DNA of 56,213 nt, filler included, from Dugesia japonica (lineage: Eukaryota), in assembly GCA_001938525.1 (NCBI GenBank). It is 4 parts of 4 records of this genome, joined end to end, with 100 filler letters (N's around TTAATTAATTAA, not from the genome) between each part and the next. Parts side by side here need not be neighbours in the genome. Positions count along the whole stretch, not along the records: positions 37,803 to 46,962 come from MQRL01518688.1; 3 more parts are not named here. One strand, written 5' to 3'. Every line of letters starts with the position of its first letter. Positions within the stretch are counted from its first letter, which is position 1. The notes under the pieces were generated by a model, which was not told where the DNA came from, did not search any database, and was given only the letters and a program-made list of their open reading frames with translations. Both the position numbers and the translations under genes were made by a program. Positions 1,018-41,535 of this stretch are shown piece by piece.

Positions 1018-1391
1018 TAAAATCATTAAAATTCATCATTTACTAGAAAAATCATGAATTTAAAATAAAATGTAAAATTTTGAAATTTAATGAAAATTAA
1101 TTAAAATTAACACATGAAATAAAATTATTATGCGGATTATTATTATTATTATTATAATTATAAATTATTATTATTACGCGAATTAATGCATTCAAGAAAA
1201 TGTATTTATTTTATTTTATTATTTAATATTTATATTTAGGAACCTGTGAAGATACAAAATTAAACCTCAAGTTAAATAAAATTAAACCCTATTTAATAAA
1301 AACGTTATGACAAATAAATAACAAAATAACTATAAAAAAAATAAACAAATTTTAATACTAAAAATTATTAAATTACACTTTTTATTAGCTC

Positions 1392-1668
1392 TTATAAAAG
1401 TGTAATTCTGCATCTAAAACATTCGCAGTTGGCTCGTCGATATATGGAATTGTAATATCTATTTAGAATTGATTGATATTGTTCTTTCTCCAGCGACATT
1501 TTCCATCGAAATAGAATCATATCTATAATATCTAGAAATGAAAATATAAAAATGAAATAATTTAAAAAATAAAACATTACTTTCTTCGTGTATAAGATCC
1601 TCCTGACCATTGGAATCGGCCGATTCTTGACAAGATTTTCTTAATTTTTCCACCTGAATATTATTCAT
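1392..1668 (-). CDS. Small two-exon 75-aa ORF with C-terminal CxCxxC (Polinton accessory, unknown function)
   Basis: Exon 1668-1581, 49-nt GT-AG intron at 1532-1580, exon 1531-1392; the splice joins two track ORFs into one open frame. Confidence 0.5.
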
Positions 1669-1820
1669 TGTATAAAGTTTTTTTTAAATTAACAACTGAT
1701 TAAAATGAAATATGTAATGTGATATATACAATTCTCTGTTTAACACAAGTCAACCAATTAAAACCGTCCAATGAAAACCAATTAATTATCAAACAAGGAA
1801 GTGCCTTGTTATACTTGCAT

Positions 1821-2207
1821 TCATATTGCATGATTCATGTTGTGAAATAAATCAATTAAATTATAAAATTCTGAAATTATATTATCTACATATCCTTGAT
1901 AGTGTAGTGTCTTTATACCAAGTATTACATTTTTTCCAGATGAAAATAAATTTACACATACAGGATCATACTTTGTAACACGTAATGCAGGGAACAATTC
2001 TTGTTCAAACCAATATTTTGTTATTTTTGCTAATTTATACAAATTGATAACTTTTTCNAAATTGATTACAATTGTTAATGATTGCAAACGAATATCTTTA
2101 ATATCATACTGTAATTTTTCCATTTTCAACGGGTTTTTACATCACATTATTCGACAACTTCTTGATTTAAAGAATATTAATGTATATTTTCCACTTTTGT
2201 CAACAAA
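1821..2207 (-). pseudogene. TATA-binding protein (TBP)-like gene within a Polinton remnant; 5' end in N gap, one stop and one frameshift
   Basis: IKDIRLQSLTIVIN.EKVINLYKLAKITKYWFEQELFPALRVTKYDPVCVNLFSSGKNVILGIK aligns by eye with TBP repeat 2 (IQN...YEPELFPGL...LIFxSGKVVLTGAK); upstream YTLIFFKSRSCRIM*CK resembles the end of repeat 1. Confidence 0.75.
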
Positions 2208-2423
2208 NNNNNNNNNNNNNNNNNNNNNNNNNNNNNNNNNNNNNNNNNNNNNNNNNNNNNNNNNNNNNNNNNNNNNNNNNNNNNNNNNNNNNNNNNNNNN
2301 NNNNNNNNNNNNNNNNNNNNNNNNNNNNNNNNNNNNNNNNNNNNNNNNNNNNNNNNNNNNNNNNNNNNNNNNNNNNNNNNNNNNTAGTATTATAAACAAT
2401 TTATTAAATTAAATCTATATAAA

Positions 2424-2624
2424 ATGGAGTTGAGAAATGATGCTGTTTATATAATTGTTGGTCCAAGTGGTAGTGGGAAAACCTTGTTTGATTGCAAGTT
2501 ACTAAAATCTAATTTATTTAAATCAAAATTTAACAAAATATATTGGCACAGAGGTGCAGATGAAGAGTATAGGTTGACACAATCAGAATTTTGCAACATT
2601 AAAATGAAAATTATAAAGGTATAG
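2424..2624 (+). pseudogene. Polinton packaging ATPase (A32/FtsK-like), N-terminal fragment
   Basis: IIVGPSGSGKT Walker A at the N terminus, followed by LLK...F...KIYW; truncated. Confidence 0.75.
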
Positions 2625-2912
2625 TGAAGAAGAAGAGGGGAACGATGAAGATTGGAATAACTTTCAAGTTGTCTCTAACACAAATATTAATATTTTTAAT
2701 CATTTCTTCCTGTTTCAAAGATAACAGATTTATTATTTCCATATTTCTTTTTAAATAATAATTTATTTCGAAAATCATGAATTTATATAATTGTTGGTGT
2801 GTAAGCGTGATTNNNNNNNNNNNNNNNNNNNNNNNNNNNNNNNNNNNNNNNNNNNNNNNNNNNNNNNNNNNNNNNNNNNNNNNNNNNNNNNNNNNNNNNN
2901 NNNNNNNNNNNN

Positions 2913-4815
2913 ATTTGTTTTTCCAAATGTGTTTCAAAGTAATAAAAAAATTAATAGATGTTGAATGCGTTCATCAAAATTAAGACAATCATCAAAATGA
3001 AGGCAATCATCATAATGAAGAAAATAGACAAAATGAAGAAAATCGACAAAATGAAAATTTCGATCAAATTTCAGAATATGATGGAAAATAAAGGCCTACA
3101 ACCGTAGATGATGAGGAAAAATATTTTGAAGCTAATGGTAACTTATTTTTATNNNNNNNNNNNNNNNNNNNNNNNNNNNNNNNNNNNNNNNNNNNNNNNN
3201 NNAAAATTGAAAGTAGTTTTAATTGGTTGTTAAAACTTATATATACTATATACAATTTAACTAAAATCATTTGTTTTTCCAAATGTGTTTCAAAGTAATA
3301 AAAAAATTAATAGATGTTGAATGCGTTCATCAAAATTAAGACAATCATCAAAATGAAGACAATCATCATAATGAAGAAAATCGACAAAATGAAGAAAATC
3401 GACAAAATGAAGAAAATCGACAAAATGAAAATTTCGATCCAATTTTAGAATATGATGGAAAATAAAGGCCTGCAACCTTAGATGATGAGGAAAAATATTT
3501 TGAAGCTAATGGTAACTTATTTTTATCAATTAAATATTTAAAAAATGATTGATTTAGAAAATATCGAATCCGATATACAAATGATGGAAGAAAAATTATC
3601 GAAAAGCTTAGACCTACTAGAAAAATCATCAAATGCATTTGATAAAGGTTTTTAATAGTCTGTACGGAAAGTCCGTTGAAAATTTTAAAAAAATAATACA
3701 TTTACGCTTATGCAATTCAAAGAAAAAGTTGATGACATATAGCTCAAAAGCAAGTTTTAAAAGAGCCATAAAAATAGATCAAGACTTGATAGCTGTTCTT
3801 CTCAACAAAGATATTGTATGTTTGAATCGACCAAACTACATTGGACAAACTGTACTGGACCTATCAAAACTTCGTATGAATCAATTACAATACGATCAGT
3901 CGGAAAAGTACAGGATAGAAGAAAATTGTACAATAAATATTGTAGCTGGCGATATGGATAGTTTTTTCCTGGAGGTTAAAAATATAAGTTTGGAAAAACT
4001 AATCGGTTTAATGGTGAGATATAAGTTATTGCATTTGCAATTTATTTTTTTTTTCATTTGCAATTTATTATTTTGTTTTAGATTTGTTCATGGATTTACT
4101 CGGACTTATATATCCAATTTTAAGAGAGGAGATGATTTATTGCTCACTAGAATTGATTTGGTTCAAAATAAAGACGTTAACAGGAATTGACATAGAAAAT
4201 TTTATAAAAATCTATGAAGAATATAATAAAGATAATAATTGCGAAAATTGCACGGAAAATAAGAAGATTTTGAAAAGAAAGTTTTTTGAATCAATTTATT
4301 TTGATAGTAATAAAAGAAAATGTTAAGTGTATTAGTTACATGTTTTNNNNNNNNNNNNNNNNNNNNNNNNNNNNNNNNNNNNNNNNNNNNNNNNNNTTAT
4401 TTTTATCAATTAAATATTTAAAAAATGATTGATTTAGAAAATATCGAATGTGGTATACAAATGATGGACCGAGAAGAGATATCGAAAGGTTTAGACCTTC
4501 TAGAAAAATCTTCAAATGCATTTGATAAAGGTTTGACTTAATTTTATTTTCAATTTAATATTTTGTTTTAAAATTGTTCATTGATTTACTCGGACTTACA
4601 TATCTTTCTTTAAAAGAAGAGATATTATATTGCGCACCAGAATTGATTTAGTTAAAAAAAAACGTTGACAGGAATTGACATAGAAAATGTTATAAAAATC
4701 TATGAAGAATATAATAAAGACAATAATTGCGAAAATTGTTCGGAAAATAAGAAGATTTTGAAAAGAAAATTTTTTGATTAAATTTATCATGACAGTCATA
4801 AAAGAAAATGTTAGC
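2913..4815 (+). repeat. Locally duplicated, spliced Polinton accessory gene with 18-bp (NEENRQ) microrepeats
   Basis: 2913-3152 is similar to 3269-3530; 3518-3650 to 4397-4533; 4060-4330 to 4550-4815; AATGAAGAAAATCGACAA tandem copies at about 3370-3425. Confidence 0.7.
3650..4030 (+). pseudogene. Protein-primed family B DNA polymerase (pPolB) fragment, Polinton
   Basis: NSLYGKSVEN (motif B), LNRPNYIGQTVLDLSKLRM, IVAGDMDSFF (motif C variant). Confidence 0.88.
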
Positions 4816-5100
4816 TTAATGTCGGTGTATTAGTATAATGTTGTAATATAAATTAATTTATTCAGTCAATTTGTTTTTCTTNNNNNNNNNNNNNNNNNNN
4901 NNNNNNNNNNNNNNNNNNNNNNNNNNNNNNNNNNNNNNNNNNNNNNNNNNNNNNNNNNNNNNNNNNNNNNNNNNNNNNNNNNNNNNNNNNNNNNNNNNNN
5001 NNNNNNNNNNNNNNNNNNNNNNNNNNNNNNNNNNNNNNNNNNNNNNNNNNNNNNNNNNNNNNNNNNNNNNNNNNNNNNNNNNNNNNNNNNNNNNNNNNNN

Positions 5101-5560
5101 AAGGGACATAGAAAAATTTTTGATAAATGATGAGTCACCATGATCTAGAGAATTTGGGCTTTGTTTGTTTTAAACAAATAAAAATTTTTGAAAAAAAATT
5201 TTGACTCACCCTGATCTAGAGAATGTTGGCTTTGTTATTTTAGACAGAAAAATTTTTGAAAGCGATGAGTCACCCTGATCTAGAGAATTTTGGCTTTATT
5301 TGTTTGGACATAGAAAAATTTTTGATGAAATGTATGACTCATCTTGATCTAGAAAAACTATGAGTCATCCTGATCTAGAAAAACGATGAGTCATCGATGA
5401 GTCATGGTCTTTGTTCTATTCAGCGATGAGTCATACCTATGAGTCAACGATGAGTCATCATCTTTGTTCTAGTCATCGATGCGTCATACTTATGACTTAT
5501 GCTCTTTGTCATAAAAGTTCTTTGTCTAGGGGGGATCCAGTGCGCCACTATCTACCTACT
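5101..5560 (+). mobile_element. Polinton terminal inverted repeat with TGA(G/C)TCA array
   Basis: Ends ggatccagtgcgccactatctacctact at 5560 (reverse complement begins AGTAG); about 10 TGAGTCA/TGACTCA copies and tgatctaga repeats. Confidence 0.75.
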
Positions 5561-6220
5561 GGAGTGCATGAGCTCACCTTTTCCTTTGGGTTCAGAGGAC
5601 CAGAGTGTTAGTCCGTCTTAATTTCCATAAAAACAAATGTCTGATTTAAAGCAAAATCCTTTTAATAAATTCAGTGATACTACATGTTTAGTTTAATTCG
5701 TTATTTAAAGTATTTTCGTTAGTATTCTATTGAATGTGAATTATTTCATCAGAAAGAAATTTATTATTTCATTCAAATAGACGAGAACGAAAAACGAAAT
5801 GATGCTATTTTAACCCTTAACCGCAAAATTGTTTTATTACATTAACCACAGCAAAATTTATTATTCAAACAAACTCAAAGAAATTTTTAAATGAAATGAA
5901 CTGTTAATGAGGATTTCGTAAATATTTGGAACCAAAGAATATAATTTAAACAATAGTATTCAAACTCAATTGAAATTAAATCATTAAAAAAACGAATTCA
6001 ATTAATGAAAACAAATTAATTTTGATATTTTTCTTTCTTTTAAAAACGTGTTTATTTGGAAATAAAATTAATAAATCAACCAAGTTTAAAGCGAAATCGA
6101 ATGAACTAAATTTATTAAATTATTTCTTACAAGTTAATCGCATAATCTTAGACACAAATATTAAATAAAAAGGAAAAACTTCTTTATCTCTATCGGTGCC
6201 AGTACATAAAAAAAACCATT

Positions 6221-6263
6221 GATTCAGTGCGCCAAAAATTGTGTCAGTGCGCTACTATCTACT
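6221..6263 (+). mobile_element. Isolated Polinton terminus fragment
   Basis: gattcagtgcgcc...cagtgcgctactatctact. Confidence 0.5.
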
Positions 6264-6646
6264 CACAACAAATACAATAATTATTTTAAAATCATAAAAA
6301 TAGGTCAATAAATATTATAACATTTTCAAACATTTTAAAAATTTATTATTACCTATAAAATCAAAGGCTTTTTCCCAAAATATTTATATTTTTAATTTTA
6401 GATTATATTAAAATTTTTAGAACCTATGAAAATTGAAATTTTTTTTATCATAGGTTTTAAAAATTTTAATATAGGTAACAGTAATAAAATATTATATAAA
6501 TTAATTTTTATTGAAAAGTTGTTAAAAAATTTTAAAAATTAAGAATTTTATTTAAAAATTAAGAATCTTAGCCGTCTTATAGTCAGTATAATCGCATTAA
6601 TCTTTGTTTGAATAATACTGACTGAATAAACTCATTTATTTCATAT

Positions 6647-6687
6647 TTGTCTGATGATGACGGTTAATCCGTCGAAATATTTAACAA
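6647..6687 (+). ncRNA. Minimal type I hammerhead ribozyme (Penelope pseudo-LTR type)
   Basis: UUGU + CUGAUGA + U + stem II GACGG/uuaau/CCGUC + GAAA + palindromic AAAUAUUU + UUA cleavage triplet + ACAA; AATAAA overlaps its 3' end. Confidence 0.85.
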
Positions 6688-7714
6688 TAAAGTTTTATTT
6701 TAAATGGCGTTACTTATTTTTTATTTATAGAATATTTTATTATTATAAAAAAAATTTCAAGTCTTAAAATTTATGTTATTTTCAGAAATTTTGGATCAAA
6801 TTATACATATTGCACATAATTGAAATTTAATGTTGAGAAATAGTAGTAATTTATAACGATTATTTTTCAAATAAACATTTACAATTGATTTATATGAATT
6901 TAATGAAGTTTGAATTATTATGTACTATCAATGTTGATTTATGTATAAAATATAGTCATGAGAAATTTGTAAATTTCAAAATTGAAGTATATGGAAAACA
7001 TCATATTCCCCTGAGTCAGTTAATTTGATGTTAAATTTATTTAGAATTTTGAATCTAACTAACTTACTGTTTATATTAAATTAGTTAATCACATAAACAT
7101 GAAATTGTTTAATTAACAAAAATCTGAAATCATCAACGAATTCATATTTTAACTACAGTTAAATAGTTTAGCATCGGCAGATATTCATGTATTTGTTTTT
7201 TGTTTATTTTTTCGAACTATATAGTTGATTTATATGTGAAAATTTTACAGCTTCTTTAAAGTTTCCATTTACGGTTATCCATGTAAACCTTTTTGCGCCA
7301 CAAATATCTTACCAATTTATATGAAAAAATATTTTATTATTATCGTCATCTTAGTGGCCATATGTTGCAGTTAAGTGTATCAAATTTAAGAATTGGTTCT
7401 CTAAAACCACCAGTTGCTAGAAAATCCAGGTGAAAACCCAGAATTGTTCGAATAAGATCATAAATTCAAAATCAAATGAAAGCTTATTTAATAATATATT
7501 TTATGTTTTTATATTTTAAATTCTTGATAATCCATAATTATTTTTATTTCAATAACAGTCCAATTTAATAAATAGAAAAATTTTCGAATAAATTAAAATT
7601 ACAATTAGAAAAGAAATCCAATTAAGAATAAATAATTTTTAATTAATCAATCTTTTATTGAAATGTTTGTTTATTTAAATCAGTTTAATCATTATTTGTG
7701 GTATTGTATTTTAA

Positions 7715-12298: not shown

Positions 12299-15200
12299 NN
12301 NNNNNNNNNNNNNNNNNNNNNNNNNNNNNNNNNNNNNNNNNNNNNNNNNNNNNNNNNNNNNNNNNNNNNNNNNNNATTATTATTATTATTATTATTTTCA
12401 ATGTTTTTATTCAGATGTCACCACTTATATCAGATGGAGTAGATCTACTTGAAAAACGTATCTTGGAACATCCATATGATAAACCAATAGATTTTAAAGA
12501 GTATGCTTTTAACTTAAACTCATTACTTCATTAATTATTTAAAACTGTTTTACTTTCTTGTTTTGAGATATTTTTCATTTTTACTTAACTTTTGCCTTAA
12601 TTTTAGAAGAGTGATTCAGTTTATTCAGAAAAAATGAAGTAGAATAAAATTTGATTTATAAGTCAGATTAAAACTAGATTGAAAACAATTTTTTTATTTT
12701 AAACTTTTAATCTTTTCTCAATTAACCATTCTAGAGTCATTTACTGAAATATAATTTACTGTCAAATTTTTTTTAAACTTAAGACTTTCGAATCTATCGA
12801 ATTCATTGCGACTTTGGATAAAAGCTTCATTCCAAAAGCTTAAATAATATTCATACCACCAACAAAACTCGGATTTATATCTTTAACTACCGTAATGTAG
12901 GTATTCTTAATCATTCCATTCCAACTAACCCAAGCTTTAAACTCTCCTAAACATGTTATTAGTTTAGCAACGAATGCTCCTCTGAGAGATATATCTGATT
13001 GCCGCAAGATAGGATTTCCGCACATTCTCCACTTATCTTCTGACATCACCGGTACTGCTGCGTCCGTATCCCATAACATCGCTATCATCTTTCCATAACA
13101 TTCAACCAAGCTCCACCATCTACTATCTGCCTTCTTGAACACCATAGCATTTCGATTTACTGCATTTAATAGCTCCAATCTCTTTCTCTTCGAAATCTCT
13201 GCTTTCATCATAACCATATGCTAAATTGTCTGAATTATTTTCTTCATGAATACAGTGAACCTTTCTTGTGTTATTTCACAATAGGCTACAATTATTAAAA
13301 AAATGATTGTCCTACCACATATCAAACAACACTTATTCAATGGACAGTTGGTTCTGACATGACCGGACTCACCACAACAATAACATTCCCCTGGTTGAAG
13401 TCGTCTTAATTCGAGCTCAGGTAACCCTTTTGCTCTGTTATATACTCTTCTTGCTATATGCCTCATGGTAACTATAGGTCTTTGGGGCTTTTCGTATTCG
13501 TTCGACCTCTCCATAGGTTGTCTTCTCTCTGAATCCCTCAGTCCTCTATTTGAGTTGGAATACTACCTTCCTTGATTATTTACCAATGGTTTGATTACCT
13601 GTGGTATATTGTGTCTAATTGGCTTTTTAATACCTGTTACTACTGCGTATGTCGGCATATGTTCTCTTTTGCTATTTCCAATTGCAATAACTTTTGACTT
13701 TTCTTCAATACTCATTGAATTTCCGAAATTTGTCCTCAATTTCTTCCGAGGGCATATCTGGGTTCATTGCAATTGACTACTTTACTTTCCCTGAGCACAT
13801 TCTTTTTGAAATTATATCTTTCACGATCATGTCTTCTGTTTGCTTCACTAACAAAAACTCCTCTTATCAACTTCCTCACTCTAATAGCAAAATTTTATAC
13901 CTTTCATTTTATCGTTGATTTACTTGGCTCAAATCGTCGATCTTTTGCAAAACATTTTTCGACTTGATGTAATTTGAACTGTACCAATTTCTTGTATCTT
14001 CATCCTTCAGAATCTTTATTTTTTTTAAAGGCTAGCAATAATTCCTTCGTGTCACCGTTCAGCAATAGATCAAATGCTGTACATAAATTTAAAGAATTTA
14101 TGGTTACAAAATCTTCAATTGATTGTAGCCACTCTTTCGCATCTTCTTTGTAGCCAAAAAACTTTTTTATTATTGTGTTGGGTTTTCACGATTTTAAAAT
14201 GATGTTATTACTGTAGGGGCACACTCGTGAAGACCACAAGGATTTTAACGTCGTGTTTCCCTTACACGCTCTCGGTTTGGTTACGGTGACTCCTTTTTTA
14301 CGGGAGTGCTGTAACCGCCCCTTTAGTTTGGGTCCAGCGGGCCAGAGTGTTAGTCCGTCTTGGGAATATTTGGTTTTATTTATGTGCGATACATTACTAT
14401 CAGGACTTCAGTGACACTTTAAAAACAAAATTAAATTAAATGTAATTTCGTATCATTTTAACTTATCATATTTATCATTATTTCAATTGACCAATTGTCA
14501 AATATTCATTCACAGAAACTGTATTACACTTGCTATTAAAATTTAAAAATAACGATAACATGTTGTAATCAATTAATTCAATTCTGCATCCGTCACTCAA
14601 TCCGCATTGTTCCAATCTTACATCATCATCCATTTAGCAATTCTTGCTGAATCGTAAATACATTTTATTCAATTTGATATCTGTTTTATTAGAACAAATT
14701 TGTTTCAATCAACCAACAGTTGTAAATTTACTCAAATTAAATGCGAATTTCGATAATTCATGAATAATCGTCACTTTAATAGAATCTTTAGGAAACAATA
14801 AGCTGATCTTTTTCACTTCTTCAATCAATTCATTAAGCCTTGCAGTTATTGATTCAATTAATTGAATAATTCATTTAGTATTCATTTAGTATAGTATTCA
14901 TTCATTTTAGTAGAATATTCATTACTACTACTATCAGTTATCGTTATAAATCTGCTCGTTTCGCAATCATCACTGATATATCTTAAACAATTTTTTCCTT
15001 TAAATTGATTAGATTCAATATTGTTAAAATAAATGTGTTAATATAAATGTGTCATCAAATAAAAATGCATTTTTAACAATTATTGTATTATATACACAAT
15101 GTTATCAATATTACATTAATCAATAATGGTATTAAAAACAATCAATAATGATAATAATAATAATAATAAACCTTATATTTGTGAATTTTTTTAAAATTAT

Positions 15201-19300: not shown

Positions 19301-22300
19301 ACAAATTTGAAAATGAAAATAACCAATGAGAAATTTATGACTGCAGAAAAATCAAGAAACCTTTATAATCGAGTAAATGCTATTGAAGGTGAAGATGTCA
19401 ATACAAACGATGAATGTGAGGAAGTGATTCCGAATGAAAGTGGTATGAAAATGATTCCGAAAGGCAATACCTAAAAGGCACTCAGGAATGAGTAATGAAA
19501 GATAGCGTTGTGCAAATAATAGTTCACTTGAAATTGTTGGGAAAGTTAGAACTGGAGTGATAATTGATGAAGTTTGCAAAGAGATTACTTTCTTAGTTGT
19601 TGAAAGAGTGACACCAGATTTGAATGGAGGAATAGATATGTAGAAGATTTTTGGATATCAGCTCATGCGAAAGGTTCATAGCAAAGCGGATGAAAAAGTT
19701 GAAAATTATATTTGTAATATTGAAGCGAAATTTGGGCGACAAATTAAAAAAGAAAATCGATTGACAAGAGCCTTAAATATTTTGAAGTTTAAAGAGGATC
19801 AACAGTTATTGAAAATAATTGCAAGTAAAGATGGCAGATAAATGGGATGTAGAACGCTCACATCTGGCAAGACACAAAATAATCACAAGTGGTGAACCAA
19901 TCAATGTAAAATCGTATAGGCAACCAATGAACTTAGAATATAAAATTAAAGAAGCTATCCAAAACCTTTTCGAGAATAATATTTCCCGGAAATGCAACTC
20001 TTCATTGAATACCCCACTTATTTGTTTTTGAAAAAAGAAAAAGTAGGACATAAGAATATATTTGGATTTCAAACAATTGAATGCAGTAACGAAAAGACAA
20101 GCCTTTCCTATGCCTAATGTTGATGAAATGTTGGACAAGTTAGATGGAGCCAAATATTTCAGTTCAATAGACTTGGGGTATGCATACTAGCAGGTAGAAC
20201 TCGAATAAGAATCACAAGAAAAAGTGGCGTTTTCAACGAAGCATGGAAAATATTGTTTTAATAGAATGCCGTTTGGAATTGCAGCAGCACCAGGGACATT
20301 TCAGGAGATGATGACAAAAGTGGTTGGCGGAATCAATGGAGCCATGGTTTATCTTGATGACATTCTGATATTTACGAACAATAAAGATCAACACTGTGAA
20401 ATAATTGACAGAATATTGATGGAAATAATGAAGGCTGGTCTAAGAAATAAACCATAAAAGTGTCAGTTTCTTCAAAGCGAAATCAAATTTCTTGGACACA
20501 TAATTAGCAGGGGTGGTGCTAGAACTGATCTGTCTAAAATAGAAATTATTATTTTAATACAAATGAAAATCATACTTAAAGTACTTTAAATAATTTAATT
20601 AATTTTAAATTATTATATATTATATTTTTTATATTATATATTTTTAAATAAAAATTAAATTCATTTTAAACTATTTTTAAAAGTTACATTAAATTATTTA
20701 TTTAAGCGTTTATTTATCTATTATTAAAATTCAACAAATTTAAATACCAAAATTTTAGAATTAATGCATGTTATTTTAAATAAATTAAATTATTGAATTA
20801 AGTCATTAATTTCAAATTAATTACTTCATTTCCAAATTTTTTAAATTTTTAATTTTCTACCTTTATTTTATCAAGTTAAGTAAATTATTTATTTAATTAT
20901 TTTCGTTAATAATTTCAGTCGAACTATCAAAAAATTTAACTGTCTCAAACCATACTTACAATTTATAATTAAAATGAAAATCAATAATAAATTGAATTCG
21001 ACAAATTACTACGTTTAACAAATTATATTTATTGATTTAATTAAAATTTTAATGTAAATCACAAACAGTAGTCATAGCAAAATTTATTTTCTATAAAACC
21101 GATTGCTATATATATTAAAAACATTTTTGCAAACAATTATTGTCATTATTTTTCAATAATAAAATAATGTTTGTGTAGCAAATTTAGTTTGAGTTAAAAT
21201 TTATAAAAATCAAAAAGTTCAGAATATTATGAGAATCAATTCACAACTTTTGGCACAGAAACAATCAGCAAAATTTAGGTTGAACAACTGTTCTACAAAC
21301 AATTAATCTACAAACTTCGTAGATGAAGAAGGAAGAGCGCAACCAACAAATTTTGATGACCACGTACTATTGGTATCCGTGAAAGAGGACAAAGGCTTGA
21401 TAACAAGAATGTTGACTGGATTTGACTCCTACGAACTATTGAACAACAACAAGTGTGTCCGAATTTTCACCGATTGGCTGCAGCGAAACTGCATTCCTAA
21501 AGAATCTCTTTATCGCGGATAAATCATAGCTTCTTTTCAAAGACTTAAAAAAGAGGTTTTGCGTTGCGCCAGGTGTTTCACCGAAATGAATATCTAAAGG
21601 TGTCCACCATAAAAGGCAATGTGGTGTGTTTGGTGTGACAGAAACGGGATTATCCACTGTGAAATCATCTCAAACGGGATTTGTTATTGTTGGAATGATG
21701 GCGATGGACATCACAATATCGGATTCTGGATATAAACGGCAAGCGTCAATTAAATACCATCAGCAATCTCTATCTGGCTAAATTTGACCGCATTCACGCT
21801 GCAATTTAGACGAAATTTCCGGACAAGAAAACATATCGTCTTCTACTACTTTGTTGAGCGTCGTTTCGTTGAATCTATCGACAAAAAGGGATGGAACTGC
21901 TTCATCATACGTTATAATCTCCCACAGAAGTTCCTACGGACTATTAAGTCAATCGATTTTTGAAAAATTGACTTGCTGAAAGTATAGTTGAAGGTATGCA
22001 GTAATGGAAGATATGACAAAAAGTGTAAGAACAATTTATATACCAAAATAATATATATAAGCCTTATATAAGCCTTTTAAGAATTATTTTTTATAAATGT
22101 TCCGCATAACCAGAAATACACTCAGATCATCAAAAGAGATATCATACTCAATGAGCCTCCCTTAATTAAGTCGAATCAATTTATCAATGATTGTTCTGCT
22201 CACAATTCAGACACAAAAAGATTAACAAGGAAAATAATAAGTTTAATAAGCTAAACACACATAATAATCATTATCTATTTAAGATAAGCATCTATTTAAA

Positions 22301-26899: not shown

Positions 26900-27400
26900 T
26901 TGATTAACGGTATCAAGGATGCAGGAATCCATCTACAAAGGACCAAATATCAGAAGGAAGTTCAAAACCGAGAAAGTAGAATGTTGGAACTGTCACAAAC
27001 TGGGATACATAAGTCGGGAGTACCCAGACAGAATACCTTCTACATGCGAAAGTTTAGGGCATATAAGAAGGCAGTGCAACAAGATAAACTGCGGAAAATG
27101 CAACAAGAATGAACATAAAACCAAAGACTTTTTCACAAAGATGGAGTACAGCAGATGGAACGAATATACTTCCGAATATAAGAGAAATAAGATTTTAAAA
27201 AGCTCTCATTTCGGGGTAGGCATGTTAACATCAATACGGGGGAAGACGATGAGACGAGTAACAAGGAATATGAGGACGACAGATATGAAGACATTATATA
27301 TGATGACAATAGATATGTCGCAAACTTATATGAACCAAAGAGAAACTCAAACGCAGAAGTTCCACTAGCAGGGCAGATGGTGGGAGCGGTAGAACTCAAA
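26900..27400 (+). mobile_element. Gypsy gag zinc-knuckle fragment (related to the 18385-20545 element)
   Basis: VECWNCHKLGY, TCESLGHIRRQC and CGKCNKNEH resemble VECWNCHK and YIRRLC at about 19135-19250. Confidence 0.75.
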
Positions 27401-33399: not shown

Positions 33400-35030
33400 A
33401 TGTTTTTGATGGTACTTATTGTCTGATGAAATCGTTCACCGTGTTCGTCACTAATTTTTTCTAAATACTTAAAGAAAAAGCTTAGGTAACACTGCAAGAA
33501 GTGTATTTTTAGCGACATATTAACACCCATTTCTTTGAACGCGTCTATTAATTCAGAAACAGTATTCTGGTATTTTAGGTAACGGGTTTTACCTGTTAAA
33601 AGTAAATATATCTTTATTTAGATATGCTAACAAGAATACTGTAATGCTTGGCTTTCAGGCTTTAAAGCTGTGATGAAGTTTTTGAAAAGGCCTAACTTAA
33701 TATGAAGATCAGGCAATAAGATATTTTGTACGTCAACAACTGCTTTATGCTTTTTATTGGCTTGCCCAGGTGTGCGGTCCACACGGCTTGGCCATTCATT
33801 AATTACATAGTGTTGATCACGTGCCTACTATTCCATAAGCATAGGAAGAAGCAGTATTTGGTGTAACCACCTTGTAATCCTGTCAAGATGCCAATAAACT
33901 TTAGATCTCCGTCAGTATTCCATCGAAATTTATCGTAATGCAATATATCCATAAGATATTTTATGATGTCATATTTTTTCTCTGCCTCCCTGGAATACGC
34001 AATCGGAATGGCAGGAAATTCGTTTTTCTTACGTAGAACAACAGTCTTTACACTAGTTGTGCTGTCATCAATAAATAGGCACGAATCCATGATGACATTA
34101 GATATTATGTTTAGCTTATTCAGCAAACCAGCAATATCGCGACAGTACACAAATCCATGCAGTTCACCTTTTCTAAAAAGCTCAACATACCGCTTATCTC
34201 TTCCTTTATACGAAAATGTTTTAGCATTGATCCAGCTTTAACAACATCTTTATTTGATAACCCTAGTCCACGAACAAAGTCACCTAATTAATGTTGCCTG
34301 ATTTGATTGCAATTATCATTTTCCCATTCATTATTGTTATCATGCGTTAAAGAATCATTCTTATTATTCATGTCAGATATATCACTGTTTGGATAAAGAA
34401 TTATTGTATCATCATCCTTATTATATGGTTTTGGTCTTATTGCTGATAGCAAATCTGGATATTTAATATGCTTTGCTGATCTCTTGTTAAAACCCGATAC
34501 CCTGGTTTGTCAAAAATAGTAATCTTCATAATTATTTTTTGTGCCCTTCAAGCCAACGATGCACTAAACGGTAAGTTACTTATCTTACCTGTTGAAAACA
34601 AGGACAAGTATGAAGAACATTTTCTGCATACAAAATGAGGAGCAAAAGGCTTATCCTGATCACCTAATTTCATTTTTAAATATGTTCTAAATCTATTCTT
34701 TATGACTGCTGTAATTTATGACTGTATTCTTTGAAAACATATTCCCCACAGATGTAACAGAAATGGTTAGGGTCATTGATGCATCACGGGTGCGCCATTT
34801 TATTTGAAATACCTCAAATATGCGATTATTTAAACAATTTTTAAATGACATGATTTTTAATTAATATATATTAATTTAAATTACCATAAATACCAAAAAA
34901 CCTTAAAACACGATTGTCTCAAAAGCCAGATGTGATGGACTATTAAAAGTATACATTTTTGTGATCAGCGTGTCAAGAGGCATAAGGAAATGTTTATGTG
35001 AACTAAGAAAAAATTTGGACCCTTGGCAGT
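33400..35030 (-). mobile_element. Chapaev3-like (CMC superfamily) DNA transposon, decayed transposase from ATG at 34798
   Basis: CINDPNHFCYICG, GDQDKPFAPHFVC, LFIDDS, GDLK...GLQGGYTKYCFFLCLW, LLPDLHIKLGL, SDEHGERFHQ. Confidence 0.8.
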
Positions 35031-35749: not shown

Positions 35750-36570
35750 ATTGCATAGGGTTAATGGGTGTATTATTTGCTTGGTAACTTTGTATTATTT
35801 TCATAGCAACCGTGTATTATAGGGTTTATAAATAGTCATCTTGTATTATTTACATAGCAACCATGTATTTTAAGGTTTATGAGTGTTTTATTTGCATAGT
35901 TACCTTGTATAATTGTCATAGCAACCGTGTAATATATAAGGTTTAAAAAGGAAGAGGGTTTATGATTGTATATGATTTATAAGTATAATGGTTTATGAGT
36001 GTGTGACCTTTTCATATAAATAACTAAAATTACTGTATAAATACCTCATAAGTAAATATTTTTATGAGTGTATAGGGTTTATAATTATAGGAAAGATATA
36101 AATAACTTAAAATTACTATATAAATACTTTATAATTAAATATTTCTAGGAATAGGGCTTACGAGTGAGAAACATTTGCATATATATAACCTAAAACTATT
36201 ATAAAAATACCTTATAATTAAATATTTTTATGACTATCTAATGTTTATGAATGCATTATTTACATAGTAACCATGAAATATAAAGTTTGTGAGTATATTA
36301 TTTACATAGCAACCGTGTATTATAGAGTCTATGAGTATATAGGGTTTATAAGTGTATTATTTGCATAGTTACCTTGTATTAGTTACATGGCGACTGTTAA
36401 ATATAGAGTTTGAGTGTATTATTTGCATAGTTACCTTGTATCATTTACATAGCAACCATGTATTATAGGGTTTATGAGTGTATCATTTACATATTTAACT
36501 TGTATTATTGACATAGAAACCGTGTAATACATGGTTTATGAGGGTATTATTTGCATAGTAACCCTGTAAT
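35750..36570 (+). repeat. Array of about 22/64-bp subrepeats; left arm of an inverted repeat
   Basis: tatagggtttatgagtgtattatttgcatagttaccttgtattatttacatagcaaccgtg recurs many times. Confidence 0.8.
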
Positions 36571-36601
36571 ATAATAATATAAGTAAAATAAGTAATATTT
36601 A

Positions 36602-36965
36602 TGTAGTATTAATATTGTAGCTGGTGATATTGATAGCCATTTCTTTCTAGATTTGGTGGATATAAGTAAAGAAAATCTTACGGTATTAATGAAGAAAGAC
36701 GAATTATTAGATACTTTAAACCATAGTAATACATTGAATTCTATTAAGTGTAAAGATGAGAATGAGGAAAAGAAGTATATAGAATGGATATTCTTAGGTC
36801 CAAAACTTTACAGCTTGCTTTCTGAGAAAGAAACAATGAAAACAAAAGACTTAACATTGCAAAATATCTGCATCAGCCATCAAGCATATGTTGACCACTA
36901 CAATTGTGATTAAAAGGTTTCAGTCAAATAATTTTGAATTGTTTCTAAGAATCATCAACTGTTTA
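36602..36965 (+). pseudogene. Polinton pPolB C-terminal fragment
   Basis: CSINIVAGDIDSHFFL...LLDT...KDE...IEWIFLGPKLYSL...SKNHQL; homologous to 3930-4030. Confidence 0.8.
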
Positions 36966-37112
36966 GGTCCAACAATGTGATAGGCTGCATCATTTCTTAA
37001 TTTTTCAATCTTATTTTTCTTTAATTTATTCATAGTTTAGTACATTGTTTACTTTTGTTTTAACTGATTAATTAAATTAATTCCATCAATACCCCACATT
37101 TATTCATTAATT

Positions 37113-37420
37113 ATGATAACCAATATTAATTACAGAGGTGAAGTGACGCAAGAAGTAACAAAGAAAATGAGCTTTCTTACAGGTAGACCATGTCAATATC
37201 AAGTCAAAAGTGATAAATTTACAATTATTTACTTCAGATTAAAAAATGTAGAATAATGGGTTGTAAGAAATTATAGGAACCTCATGATTTGAACCCCTAT
37301 TATATGACGAATTTACAATTACAGTCAATAACAATTGTCGTAAATATGGGAGTTTCCATAAATATGTATAAATTAGCAAGAATAGTCATCTGTTGGTTCG
37401 AACCAGAGTTATTTCCTATC
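37113..37420 (+). pseudogene. Second TBP-like gene copy (N-terminal repeat to EPELFP); frameshift and stop, truncated
   Basis: MITNINYRG...DKFTIIYF../KCRIMGCKK...NLQLQSITIVVNMGVSINMYKLARIVICWFEPELFP; homologous to 1821-2207. Confidence 0.72.
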
Positions 37421-37423
37421 TGA

Positions 37424-37649
37424 ATAATACAAGGTAACTTTGCAAAAAATACACCCATAAACTCTTTATAACATGGTTGCTATGTAAATAATACAAGGTA
37501 ACTGTGCAAATAATACACCCATAAACGATATATTGCACTGTTGTTATGTAAATAATATACTCATAAACCTTATATTTCATGGTTGCAATGTAAATAATAC
37601 ATTCATAAACCCTAGACAGTCATAATAATATTTAATTATAAGATATTTT
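37424..37649 (-). repeat. Right arm of inverted repeat (reverse complement of about 36200-36480)
   Basis: 37545-37649 reverse-complements to 36202-36307 with scattered mismatches. Confidence 0.8.
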
Positions 37650-37822: not shown

Positions 37823-38010
37823 TCATATATGCAAATAAAGTATTACAATAGTAAAATAAAATGATTGTTTACATATGTGCAAATAAAGTATTACAATAGT
37901 AAAATAAAATGATTGTTTACATATTTGCAAATAAAGTATTGCAATAGTTAAATAAAATGATTGTTTACATATATGCAAATAAAGTATTACAATAAAATAA
38001 AATGATTGTC
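37823..38010 (+). repeat. 48-bp tandem repeat, about 4 copies, containing AAGTATTAC
   Basis: Unit acatatgtgcaaataaagtattacaatagtaaaataaaatgattgttt; nonamer at 37838, 37886 and 37982, variant at 37934. Confidence 0.85.
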
Positions 38011-38707
38011 CGAAATAAAATAANNNNNNNNNNNNNNNNNNNNNNNNNNNNNNNNNNNNNNNNNNNNNNNNNNNNNNNNNNNAAGTTTATTTTCTTCGAT
38101 TTATTGAATTGATGATCTTGAACTGATTACTGGATACTGAATTCGATGGTCTTGAGTTGATTATTCTGATTGTTATTGTTTTGTTGTATATGTATGTATG
38201 TGTGTTTGTTATATCTTGTTATCTACTTAACCCAACAATTTATTTATAGGATATATTTAATGTATTTTATTTGTCTCGTTAAGACCTACTCTTTATCCTT
38301 TTAAATTTCCAATTTATTTCTTATCGTTTGGTAAAAAAAACGTTATAAAGTACCGATTTTAGGACAAAGAACATTTTAATTTTAATCAGATTAATTTGAA
38401 TTGTGTTTTTATTTCAAAATTTGAGCATATATTTGTATTCATTATTGACTCCATTTGGGTAACGATAGTGTTAATGGCATAAAATATAATAAAACAGTAA
38501 GAATTATTGTTATTTTCAATTTGTCATCATTAAAATTTTGAAATTACGTTGCAAGAGAATAATTAATATTGATCAAATGTACACTTTTTTCTTATTCACT
38601 TACCCATACGACTTTTTAAAAGCCCAATTTTGTTGGATTTTTACCGATTGCCAAGAAAGATTTATGACCCCTCTCGTATATACTATACTATAATATAATT
38701 TATAACT

Positions 38708-39540
38708 TCAAAAATTTAATATAGCACTGTTAAAGTGTAATTTTGCAGCTACCATTTTGAGGAGATCGTTGTGAATCCGTATGGATAGGTTGATGTCCTC
38801 GATAATCAGGCCATCGTAATTGATATCGTTGTTGAGTAGCGCTAGCTGTTTGGTGGTTACATAAAGCGCATTATTAAAATGAGCTAATGCATATTGGGTT
38901 TTGCCGATTTTGGTTGGTCCCACAAACACCATTGTATGGTTGTCGAATGGCACTGTTTGGCGAATTAACGATGTAACAGCATATTTGCATTTGGTTTGTT
39001 TAGCTGTTAAATCATTGAGCACATTGATGATCTTTGATTTTTTATTGATGTAGTCTGCGTGAGATTCAGATTTTACTAAATCCATGCCTTCCTTAACATA
39101 CGTACTATGTAAAACCCGATGCCAAAGCGATTTGTTCAACTCTATCCGTTCACCGATCTGTATGCGAACACCACCTGGTACACGCGTTTCTCCCTTACAA
39201 CAGTAGTCTATGCCAGACTCTATTTCGCCTGCTGCAACCGCATGTACATAGTTGAACTTAAACTGCTGTCGAACTTATAAATTATAACGTTATAAATTAA
39301 TACTAAATATATAACAATATAATTTACCTGAAAGAACTTTCTGCCTTGGTGTAATGTGACAAAACACTCTAAGTGTTGCTACCCATTTTCTGACACCTCT
39401 TCTTGAGCTATTACAAACTTGTATTCACCGAATAATTTATCCTATAGTTGTTTGTTATCCAAATAGTCCAATGTTATTACACCACCGACCGGGTGCATAA
39501 CATTTTTCCATCTGCAAGTTGAATCTATAGTTTCTATGCC
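38708..39540 (-). pseudogene. Endogenous CRESS-DNA-virus-like Rep (HUH endonuclease plus SF3 helicase) with a 53-nt intron
   Basis: FVIAQEEVSENG*QHLECFV (motif II), intron 39275-39327, IDYCCKGETRVPG (motif III), VFVGPTKIGKTQYA (Walker A), YDGLIIEDI (Walker B); in-frame stops in the first exon. Confidence 0.82.
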
Positions 39541-39806
39541 GGCTAATCAAATCCACTCCTGNNNNNNNNNNNNNNNNNNNNNNNNNNNNNNNNNNNNNNN
39601 NNNNNNNNNNNNNNNNNNNNNNNGCTGCGCTTCTGTAGTACTGGCCGAGCCACAGTGTTGTCCGTTCTGTCCTATAGAATCAGATGGTTTCTGACTGGTT
39701 CTCTTTTTGCAATATTCTTCAACTGTTGTTCGAGATCGCAAGGAACTACATGAGTTGATGGCTCCCGGCCGTGCCAATGTTTCATCGCATTGACGATGAG
39801 CATCCT

Positions 39807-40385
39807 TTATTGATGTTCTTTTACACACTCCTCCATTTTCTTTATCAAGTTCGTAAGATAAGCCATGTTTTTCCCTGATTGATTGACTGCTGTCTGATGT
39901 ACTTTTATGTCTGATGTCAATCGGCTGGAGTATGCATCGTTGCGGTTTTCGGCCAGGAATATTTGATAAATATTTTGAGCAGTTTTCTGTAGATATGTTG
40001 TCATGCTTTTTAGTGGCAGATGGTGTGCTCAGGTCTGAAGCATAAGTTTTCTTGCTTTGGTGTTAGGAGTACGTTGTCGTAGATCGGTAGCATCTTCGAA
40101 TGTGTCCACGCTAGTGGTTGATGCATGTGAGTTATTTACATCTGACCGTAATTGTTGAATGCTGGTTATCGCTGCCAGCAGTTCGTCATCCGATTGATTG
40201 TTTGGTTGTAATAGCCCATCCTCGTCGTCTTGAATAGGTGTATCCTCCACTTCCTCGTCGAAAGAACTTATAAGAAAATTGATATCCTGATTCGTCTGCT
40301 CGCTCATTGTTGAGTTCCCTCTCGACAAGGACATCACTGGTAATGCCGCTACTCCATTGTGAAGTATTTGAAGGACTTCTATCAT
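39807..40385 (-). pseudogene. Acidic unknown ORF upstream of and co-oriented with Rep
   Basis: Track ORFs 40029-40385 and 39807-40004 share a frame, separated by one TGA; GC content is similar to Rep and higher than the flanks. Confidence 0.45.
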
Positions 40386-40459
40386 ATTCGTCGCATGCTA
40401 TATAGTTTCATTAAATATATTCTGTTTATTTTTCCGGACCGCGGGTTGTCCACTTTTTT

Positions 40460-41535
40460 TAATGAATAAAAATTATGAATTTGGTTATAATTTCTAAATA
40501 ATTATTTGTTAAGAAAATTGAGTGGCAAATAGAAAAATATGGTCATTTCCGACATGAGATTATTTGAATTCAACAGATGAGCTAATGCATCGGAAGTCGC
40601 TAGAACCATTTGTGCTGTTTATGGAAAGAATGTGATTGTGGGAAGTATAGTACGAAAAAGATTTTTCCAGTTTCAAAGAGTGACATTCAACAACTTACTG
40701 GATAACAATCGAACTTCAATGAAGATTATATGGGTGTCTTAATTCTTGAAAATCCAAACAACTCGGGAATTGACACCAATTGACTATAGCGCGACATTTA
40801 AATCCATGGACAAAGTTCATAGAATAGGTGTATATGTGAAACATGCTTTGACTAAAATCAATAAAAGTCACTTTATTAACAATTACGTCTTATTTCTAGC
40901 TTGTGAACAACGTCGAACTTTTGTTTAACCTTTTGTTATTGGCGATGGAAATGGTTGCATTTACGAGAATATCAAGAAGAGAAAGAAATGATTTAACCCT
41001 AAAAAAAGGACAACTTCTCGCGTGAAAACTTTTAATCATCCGTGTAAAGTAATGTTGTGTATTTGGTGGGACATTAAATGTATTGCATACTATGAATTAC
41101 TTTGAGGAAATATATCCAACACTGCTAGCATTTACTTTCAACAACTCCGTCATCTTGAAGCCGAAATTATAAAAAAAAACACCAAAAAGAAATCAAGCTC
41201 GTGCTCATACTGCTAACATCACCAAGGATCTTGGTTGAGGAGTCATGCTATATTCGCATTTCTCTCCGGATGTCGCTCCATCAAATTTTCATCTGTTGCA
41301 ATTTCTAGCTAACATTGTTCAAGGAATATCCTTTGATGATAACGTAGCGCTTCAGAATTGGCTTGATAACTTCTTTACTCCAAATCAAAGGATTTCTTTA
41401 GTCACGAAATCGAAAAATTTTCAGATCTTTAGAAAAGAATTGTAAATAATGGTGGGAAATATTTTCTCAATTAGTTCTTTTGTTGTTAAAAATCAATAAA
41501 TTTTCAATCAAATAAAATGCNACGAATTTATGCAT
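40460..41535 (+). mobile_element. Near full-length decayed mariner element
   Basis: HFRH..FEFNR...ARTICAVYG, IGDG, HP.KVMLCIWWD, HFSPDVAPSNFHL. Confidence 0.85.

Follow-up and report, generated by a model that had tools for sequence, protein, structure and literature searches.

What kind of element left a broken replication protein (Rep) gene on the minus strand of a 56,213-nucleotide stretch of Dugesia japonica DNA (assembly GCA_001938525.1; hereafter the window), and where did the short AT-rich segment that interrupts this gene come from? The initial annotation proposed a nuclear rolling-circle virus or a HUH transposon that had adapted for long enough to carry an intron of the host's size class. 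Our analyses suggest that the locus is probably a broken endogenous rep of a PEVE-like circular ssDNA virus, and that the 53-nt segment, a likely spliceosomal intron, was carried along at integration.

The CRESS Rep motifs, as defined in PMC8780604, were re-found on the minus strand: motif II (QEEVSENG*QHLECFV), motif III in IDYCCK (Tyr at 39205), Walker A (GPTKIGKT, 38920-38897) and Walker B (IIEDI, 38806-38792). An exhaustive protein search with the downstream exon (the helicase exon) yielded 98 proteins at E<=0.001, of which the Rep of PEVE (P0002, NP_476526.1) is the second-best match (E 1.5e-17, 35% over 162 query residues); two word-indexed protein searches with the same exon gave no match. 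The kinship to PEVE, which the initial annotation had put forward, is shown by this match. With a Rep profile of the clade, the HUH motifs were matched at E 5e-10 (motif II piece) and E 4e-47 (motif III piece), and both SF3 helicase motifs, Walker A and Walker B, align to the Rep profile. The clade profile also matched the solved Rep 7lar (E 0.0016), and a protein atlas placed the exon with RNA_helicase/Cressdnaviricota clusters (0.95). In Pfam, Viral_Rep matched the motif II piece below its cut-off (E 0.03, 15 bits versus 26) and PF00910 gave no match. The proposed identity as a CRESS-type Rep with HUH and SF3 domains is therefore upheld by the homologs, the clade profile and the atlas, and the resemblance to circovirus, nanovirus and alphasatellite Reps is present but distant, as the values for Viral_Rep and 7lar indicate. 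The coordinates of the pieces are given in Table 1.

Table 1. Features of the rep locus, with positions along the window.
Feature	Position	Strand	Remarks
High-copy short host repeat at the truncation	38686..38780	.	depth about 5000-6700 vs 9-24
Downstream (helicase) Rep exon, carrying motif III (YCCK), the linker and Walker motifs A and B	38777..39274	-	98 matches at E<=0.001
Putative 53-nt phase-0 intron	39275..39327	-	GT at the donor; acceptor of this copy decayed
Rep motif II exon (QEEVSENG*QHLECFV)	39328..39441	-	one in-frame stop; clade profile E 5e-10
Disrupted motif I-II linker	39442..39511	-	frame change and stop; 34 nt beyond homolog spacing
Rep motif I region (RHRNYRFNL)	39515..39541	-	third frame; overlooked in the initial annotation
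N run	39562..39623	.	62 N in the window; 81 letters in contigs of other runs
Stop-free 146-codon frame, likely the low-complexity N-terminal extension of Rep	39624..40062	-	in register with motif I at 81 letters
Overlapping frame, +1 to the Rep extension	39624..40397	-	interrupted by 3 stops here; start acidic, second half of helical appearance

Phylogenetic analysis placed the window Rep, with moderate support, in the PEVE-like clade. In a quick tree of 100 homologs and the window exon, from which 18 short rows were dropped, the exon falls in a 12-row set with PEVE (SH-aLRT 95). In a more careful tree of 29 chosen homologs it is sister to a group of PEVE, P0101 and P0102 at 85/78, which is moderate and below the starred level, within a 10-row clade at 88/83; both trees were built without named virus family references. 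Among the further loci compared, L002, L003 and L004 are distant Reps, the first two uninterrupted and the third wrapping around its contig end. No relatives turned up in locus scans that used the window exon, P0101, A4, A5 (viral contigs) and A3 (prokaryote genomes).

The helicase part of the gene is incomplete. The downstream exon covers positions 64-227 of the 344-position profile, and of its 188 residues the match to Rep extends to about residue 164. The window has neither motif C (sensor 1) nor the arginine finger, so that the C-terminus of the helicase is lost in this copy. Beyond 38776 lies the high-copy repeat, so these two motifs are missing and the last ~22 codons of the open reading frame that had been drawn from 38708 are not Rep. 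Contigs of other sequencing runs depart from the window at 38776 and rejoin it near 38780, with unaligned stretches of 611-1214 nt and about 518 nt, which suggests that about 1.1 kb, a length deduced from these contigs, is missing here.

The 53-nt segment was found as described before: it is AT-rich (9% GC), opens as CAG/GTAAAT (the slash marks the upstream exon end) and closes with AA in the window copy. It is the 53-nt interval with the lowest GC content of the region 38776-39561, and none of 2000 shuffles was as low; the gene itself has 38% GC. Removing the segment restores the Rep register, and the flanking pieces then adjoin exactly on Rep profiles. On the clade profile, which was built without the window sequence, the upstream piece aligns to positions 31-60, three residues follow, and the downstream piece starts at position 64. 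A profile made from the matches of the downstream exon alone also found the upstream piece (E 1e-8), with the two pieces adjoining. Counted across the segment, 15+24=39 residues separate the His of motif II from the Tyr of motif III. This is the commonest spacing (9 of the 20 homologs that could be scored by motif pattern, the rest having 37 to 42) and is also that of PEVE, P0007, P0008 and P0020. In-frame AGs that might serve as acceptors occur at 62, 65 and 71 nt as well, but they were discarded because splicing there would delete aligned residues and upset the register.

The missing AG of the window copy is present in other copies. Contigs of runs X1, X2 and X3, that is, of all three well-covered runs and from three studies, retain the segment with canonical GT-AG ends. 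The proposed match to the intron size of the host also held, since two introns in the cytochrome P450 (CYP) gene of the window measure 46 and 52 nt, and the exon ends around the segment read AG and GT, a proto-splice context. Given the GT-AG ends in other copies, the exact register and the host size, the segment is likely a U2-type spliceosomal intron as judged from DNA. Three RNA runs gave 0 reads at the locus, as did the positive-control DNA run X2.

Upstream of motif II, the picture differs from the one first drawn. The N run is under-sized in the window, as the contigs of all four runs compared show. A motif I candidate, RHRNYRFNL, scored 59 against P0024 (0 of 500 shuffles as good) and was matched as well by 1 of 500 shuffles against P0040; it gave no signal against two of the seven homologs tested, and on the clade profile it reached only E 0.073 (positions 5-21). 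With the gap at 81 letters, the frame 40062-39624 comes into register with the motif I frame. This frame was stop-free in only 2 of 20,000 shuffles, and 15% of its residues are hydrophobic. The upstream link that had been drawn across one TGA is consequently an artefact of the under-sized gap, whereas the N-terminal extension of Rep that it was meant to reach is likely real, via the motif I frame. PEVE and P0007 have similar N-terminal extensions without alignable similarity to that of the window. ChaC and DUF3370 matches in the 5' extension fell below the Pfam cut-off.

Motifs I and II are 25 residues apart in four of five homologs, and the window linker is longer than this (Table 1). No clean GT-AG pair that would explain the linker was found; it is possibly a decayed second short intron. 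The contigs of X1-X3 show no indels at 39442-39511, so the lesion is common to the other copies. The frame that overlaps the extension in +1 was considered as the Rep extension and dropped once the motif I frame had been found. An ORF that overlaps the Rep extension in +1 occurs in PEVE too; homology between the two overlapping frames was rejected (E 0.96, 386 of 1000 shuffles as good).

We then considered the other copies of the locus. Part of the stretch is present in 12 of 24 sequencing runs, and contigs from four of these were compared, those of X8 (depth 2-3, same study as X2) not being counted as independent. In each of X1, X2 and X3, the region 38776-39561 is spanned by a single contig that shows 17-24 differences, is free of gaps and has flank-like depth, although contig depth is not a measure of copy number. 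Among the best-supported differences listed, nine lie in the helicase exon, of which four are synonymous, three non-synonymous and two nonsense. No intact copy was seen among the contigs, and other copies have nonsense codons of their own. X1 diverges by 2.3-2.4% within the element and by 1.5-3.3% across its flanks, the pattern expected of neutral decay after one insertion. These results do not fit a HUH transposon or an element adapted inside the genome: a single contig covering Rep in each run, the lack of an intact copy among the contigs compared and flank-like divergence point to a dead endogenous viral element rather than to a transposon or a domesticated gene. Helitrons and Replitrons also bring a HUH endonuclease into eukaryotic genomes, but the window differs from them in having an SF3 helicase, no copy family and no ends seen. 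Helitrons carry an SF1 Pif1 helicase, and Replitrons are not known to carry a helicase.

Searches of the window for a capsid gene (tblastn of the PEVE ORFs), an origin stem-loop and element ends found none, and the element showed no terminal repeats. Nonanucleotide patterns gave one loose match in 38200-41500, inside the intron. The element is flanked by high-copy short repeats (38376-38422, 40470-40660 and 40800-40900), and a 48-nt tandem repeat occupies 37824-38004.

Two members of the clade, PEVE (L001) and the metagenomic rep L005, were compared as DNA, and all introns described for them here are predictions from DNA. The PEVE Rep lies on the 5699-nt segment L001, which has 243-nt terminal inverted repeats (1-243 and 5457-5699). 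Its motif I (RARNFQLSIP) sits in another frame than the annotated Rep, and a 56-nt GT-AG segment (4028-4083) lies between the two; the flanks of this segment give 13+12=25 residues, the spacing of four of five homologs. A second GT-AG segment, of 48 nt and with an in-frame stop (3542-3589), interrupts the Rep extension. The database Rep of PEVE starts inside motif II and is without motif I and the extension. In L005, an AT-rich GT-AG segment of about 45 (or 35) nt (96-140) precedes motif I, and another of 40 nt (957-996) lies at the arginine finger, after which the frame resumes with CRIKFF..LF as in uninterrupted homologs. The predicted positions in PEVE, L005 and the window all differ, and no relative was seen with an intron at the position of the window intron, where PEVE is uninterrupted; P0007, P0040 and P0101 are uninterrupted through motifs I-III.

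Several smaller observations were made on these sequences. P0101 ends at the same arginine-finger point as the L005 segment, and L005 has a frameshift near 620. At the protein level, P0024 has a 17-residue insert within motif II that begins with GKY and resembles a retained 51-nt in-frame intron, and the proteins P0010 and P0120 open with hydrophobic runs of a similar sort, which are hints of the same kind. On the minus strand of L001, an ORF at 207-1040 is ssDNA-capsid-like (atlas 0.95, the family call being unsure), and a 626-codon ORF at 1290-3170 contains no Pfam family above the cut-off.

The window thus resembles PEVE in its homologous Rep with the same motif II-III spacing, its long extension at the N-terminus, overlapped by a +1 frame, and its short GT-AG segments in rep. 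It differs in being integrated and broken, with no capsid gene found, whereas PEVE is an intact segment with a capsid-like ORF and terminal inverted repeats, and has its introns elsewhere. PEVE has been reported as not found integrated, and its small segment has been grouped with parvoviruses (PMC3198968). The Repbase element PIVE is described as parvovirus NS1-like and close to that small segment (PMC3198968). Endogenous CRESS Reps are common in invertebrates (PMC3198968, PMC6186406), and endogenous circo-, nano- and geminivirus-like Reps, including those of Hydra, mites and nematodes, are likewise degraded in non-coding host DNA (PMC3198968).

How, then, did the intron come to be there? It might have been gained after integration, in a domesticated gene or a capsid-less HUH transposon that died later. 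Its position is not common to any relative, its size fits that of the CYP introns, the proto-splice context would suit a gain, and no capsid gene was found nearby. We nevertheless consider this unlikely: free PEVE and L005 already have predicted introns of this size class, no terminal repeats were found, and such a gain needs a period of function, of which there is no sign in a locus with one Rep-covering contig per run and with all copies seen broken and diverging like their flanks. In view of the predicted mini-introns of PEVE and L005, the virus lineage offers a better explanation for the intron, as one of its traits; since no relative seen shares its position, the case for a viral origin of this very intron is one of analogy.

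Random insertion of AT-rich DNA into a gene that was already dead is a very unlikely source of the 53 nt. The genome is AT-rich and laden with repeats, the acceptor of the window copy is non-canonical, and the motif I-II linker likewise contains unexplained extra DNA, but chance would have to account for the GTAAAT start, the canonical end in other copies, the position at a codon boundary, the host intron length and an alignment without gap or duplicated residue. It is also very unlikely that the Rep stretch is viral or episomal DNA mis-assembled among repeats into a scaffold. High-copy repeats and N gaps do bound the element, and no contig spans the whole stretch; against this, three runs, from studies of 2014, 2015 and 2025, have overlapping contigs that lead from the flanks into and through the element at similar depth, and the nonsense codons argue against a replicating virus.

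In the preferred reading, that of an endogenous rep from a PEVE-like virus, host RNA polymerase II would have transcribed rep in the nucleus, and the host spliceosome would have removed one or more introns of 40-56 nt, yielding a Rep some 500 residues long. This protein, composed of the low-complexity extension, the HUH nickase and the SF3 helicase, would start rolling-circle replication. Unspliced RNA would meet stops in or after the introns, which could favour the overlapping upstream frame. A single germline insertion would have been followed by neutral decay, with the end of the helicase lost in this haplotype.

Rep introns of two origins have been reported in a genealogy of 926 RefSeq Reps: one location and origin is shared by Genomoviridae and the genera Mastrevirus, Becurtovirus, Capulavirus and Grablovirus, and the second is that of porcine circoviruses (bioRxiv 10.1101/687855). 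As in Genomoviridae, these geminivirus genera and porcine circovirus (Rep/Rep'), rep of the PEVE-like clade is predicted here to need host splicing; unlike them, the clade would have introns at several positions (before motif I, between motifs I and II, between motifs II and III, and at the arginine finger). So far as is known, CRESS Rep introns otherwise lie downstream of motif III. The PEVE-like clade appears to add several Rep intron origins to the two reported. Intron-interrupted Reps are marked in arthropod viruses in PMC6186406, the word "intron" is absent from the main text of PMC3198968, and PMC9241645, in its accessible portions, only cites PEVE. A search of the openly accessible literature, to which the 2002 PEVE paper does not belong, found nothing relevant on introns in PEVE or on intron gain in Reps of ssDNA viruses.

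By itself, the locus is an ordinary dead viral fossil, and its interest lies in the scattered mini-introns and the likely mis-annotation of the PEVE Rep. The predicted mini-introns, of 40-56 nt, occupy at least five positions in the three elements seen as DNA, and same-size introns at different positions suggest that the PEVE-like lineage likely gained them repeatedly as a virus. On balance, we lean towards the view that PEVE-like elements form an unrecognised invertebrate CRESS lineage with recurrent gain of host-sized mini-introns, whose database Reps are truncated mis-annotations of a ~500-residue protein. If so, a 6-kb virus would serve as a compact model for the repeated gain of spliceosomal introns, and the locus would be its germline fossil, recording that a PEVE-like virus entered an animal germline with the intron-like segment in place. 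Confirmation would further mean that the PEVE reference Rep is without motif I and about 250 residues, that prokaryote-style gene calls fragment the whole PEVE-like clade, and that intron gain can be traced in a small, fast-evolving genome.

Outside the rep locus, the window contains the host cytochrome P450 gene (7850-26600, plus strand), which has many exons (one with a p450 match of E 1.9e-15) and several introns of kilobases. At 36204-37649, an element consists of a fragment that resembles 3621-4190, enclosed by long inverted arms (up to 137 nt, 86%) that are repetitive within themselves; by motif, and without Pfam support, both look like remnants of a DNA polymerase B (Polinton-like). Decayed pieces of mobile elements lie at 33803-34237 (minus strand), 41239-41445 (plus), 13221-13562 (minus), 26904-27368 (plus) and 19806-20500. 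Two of these five are, presumably, DNA-transposase-like, judging by motif; of the remaining pieces, two are zinc-knuckle gag-like with weak zf-CCHC matches, and one is retroelement pol-like.
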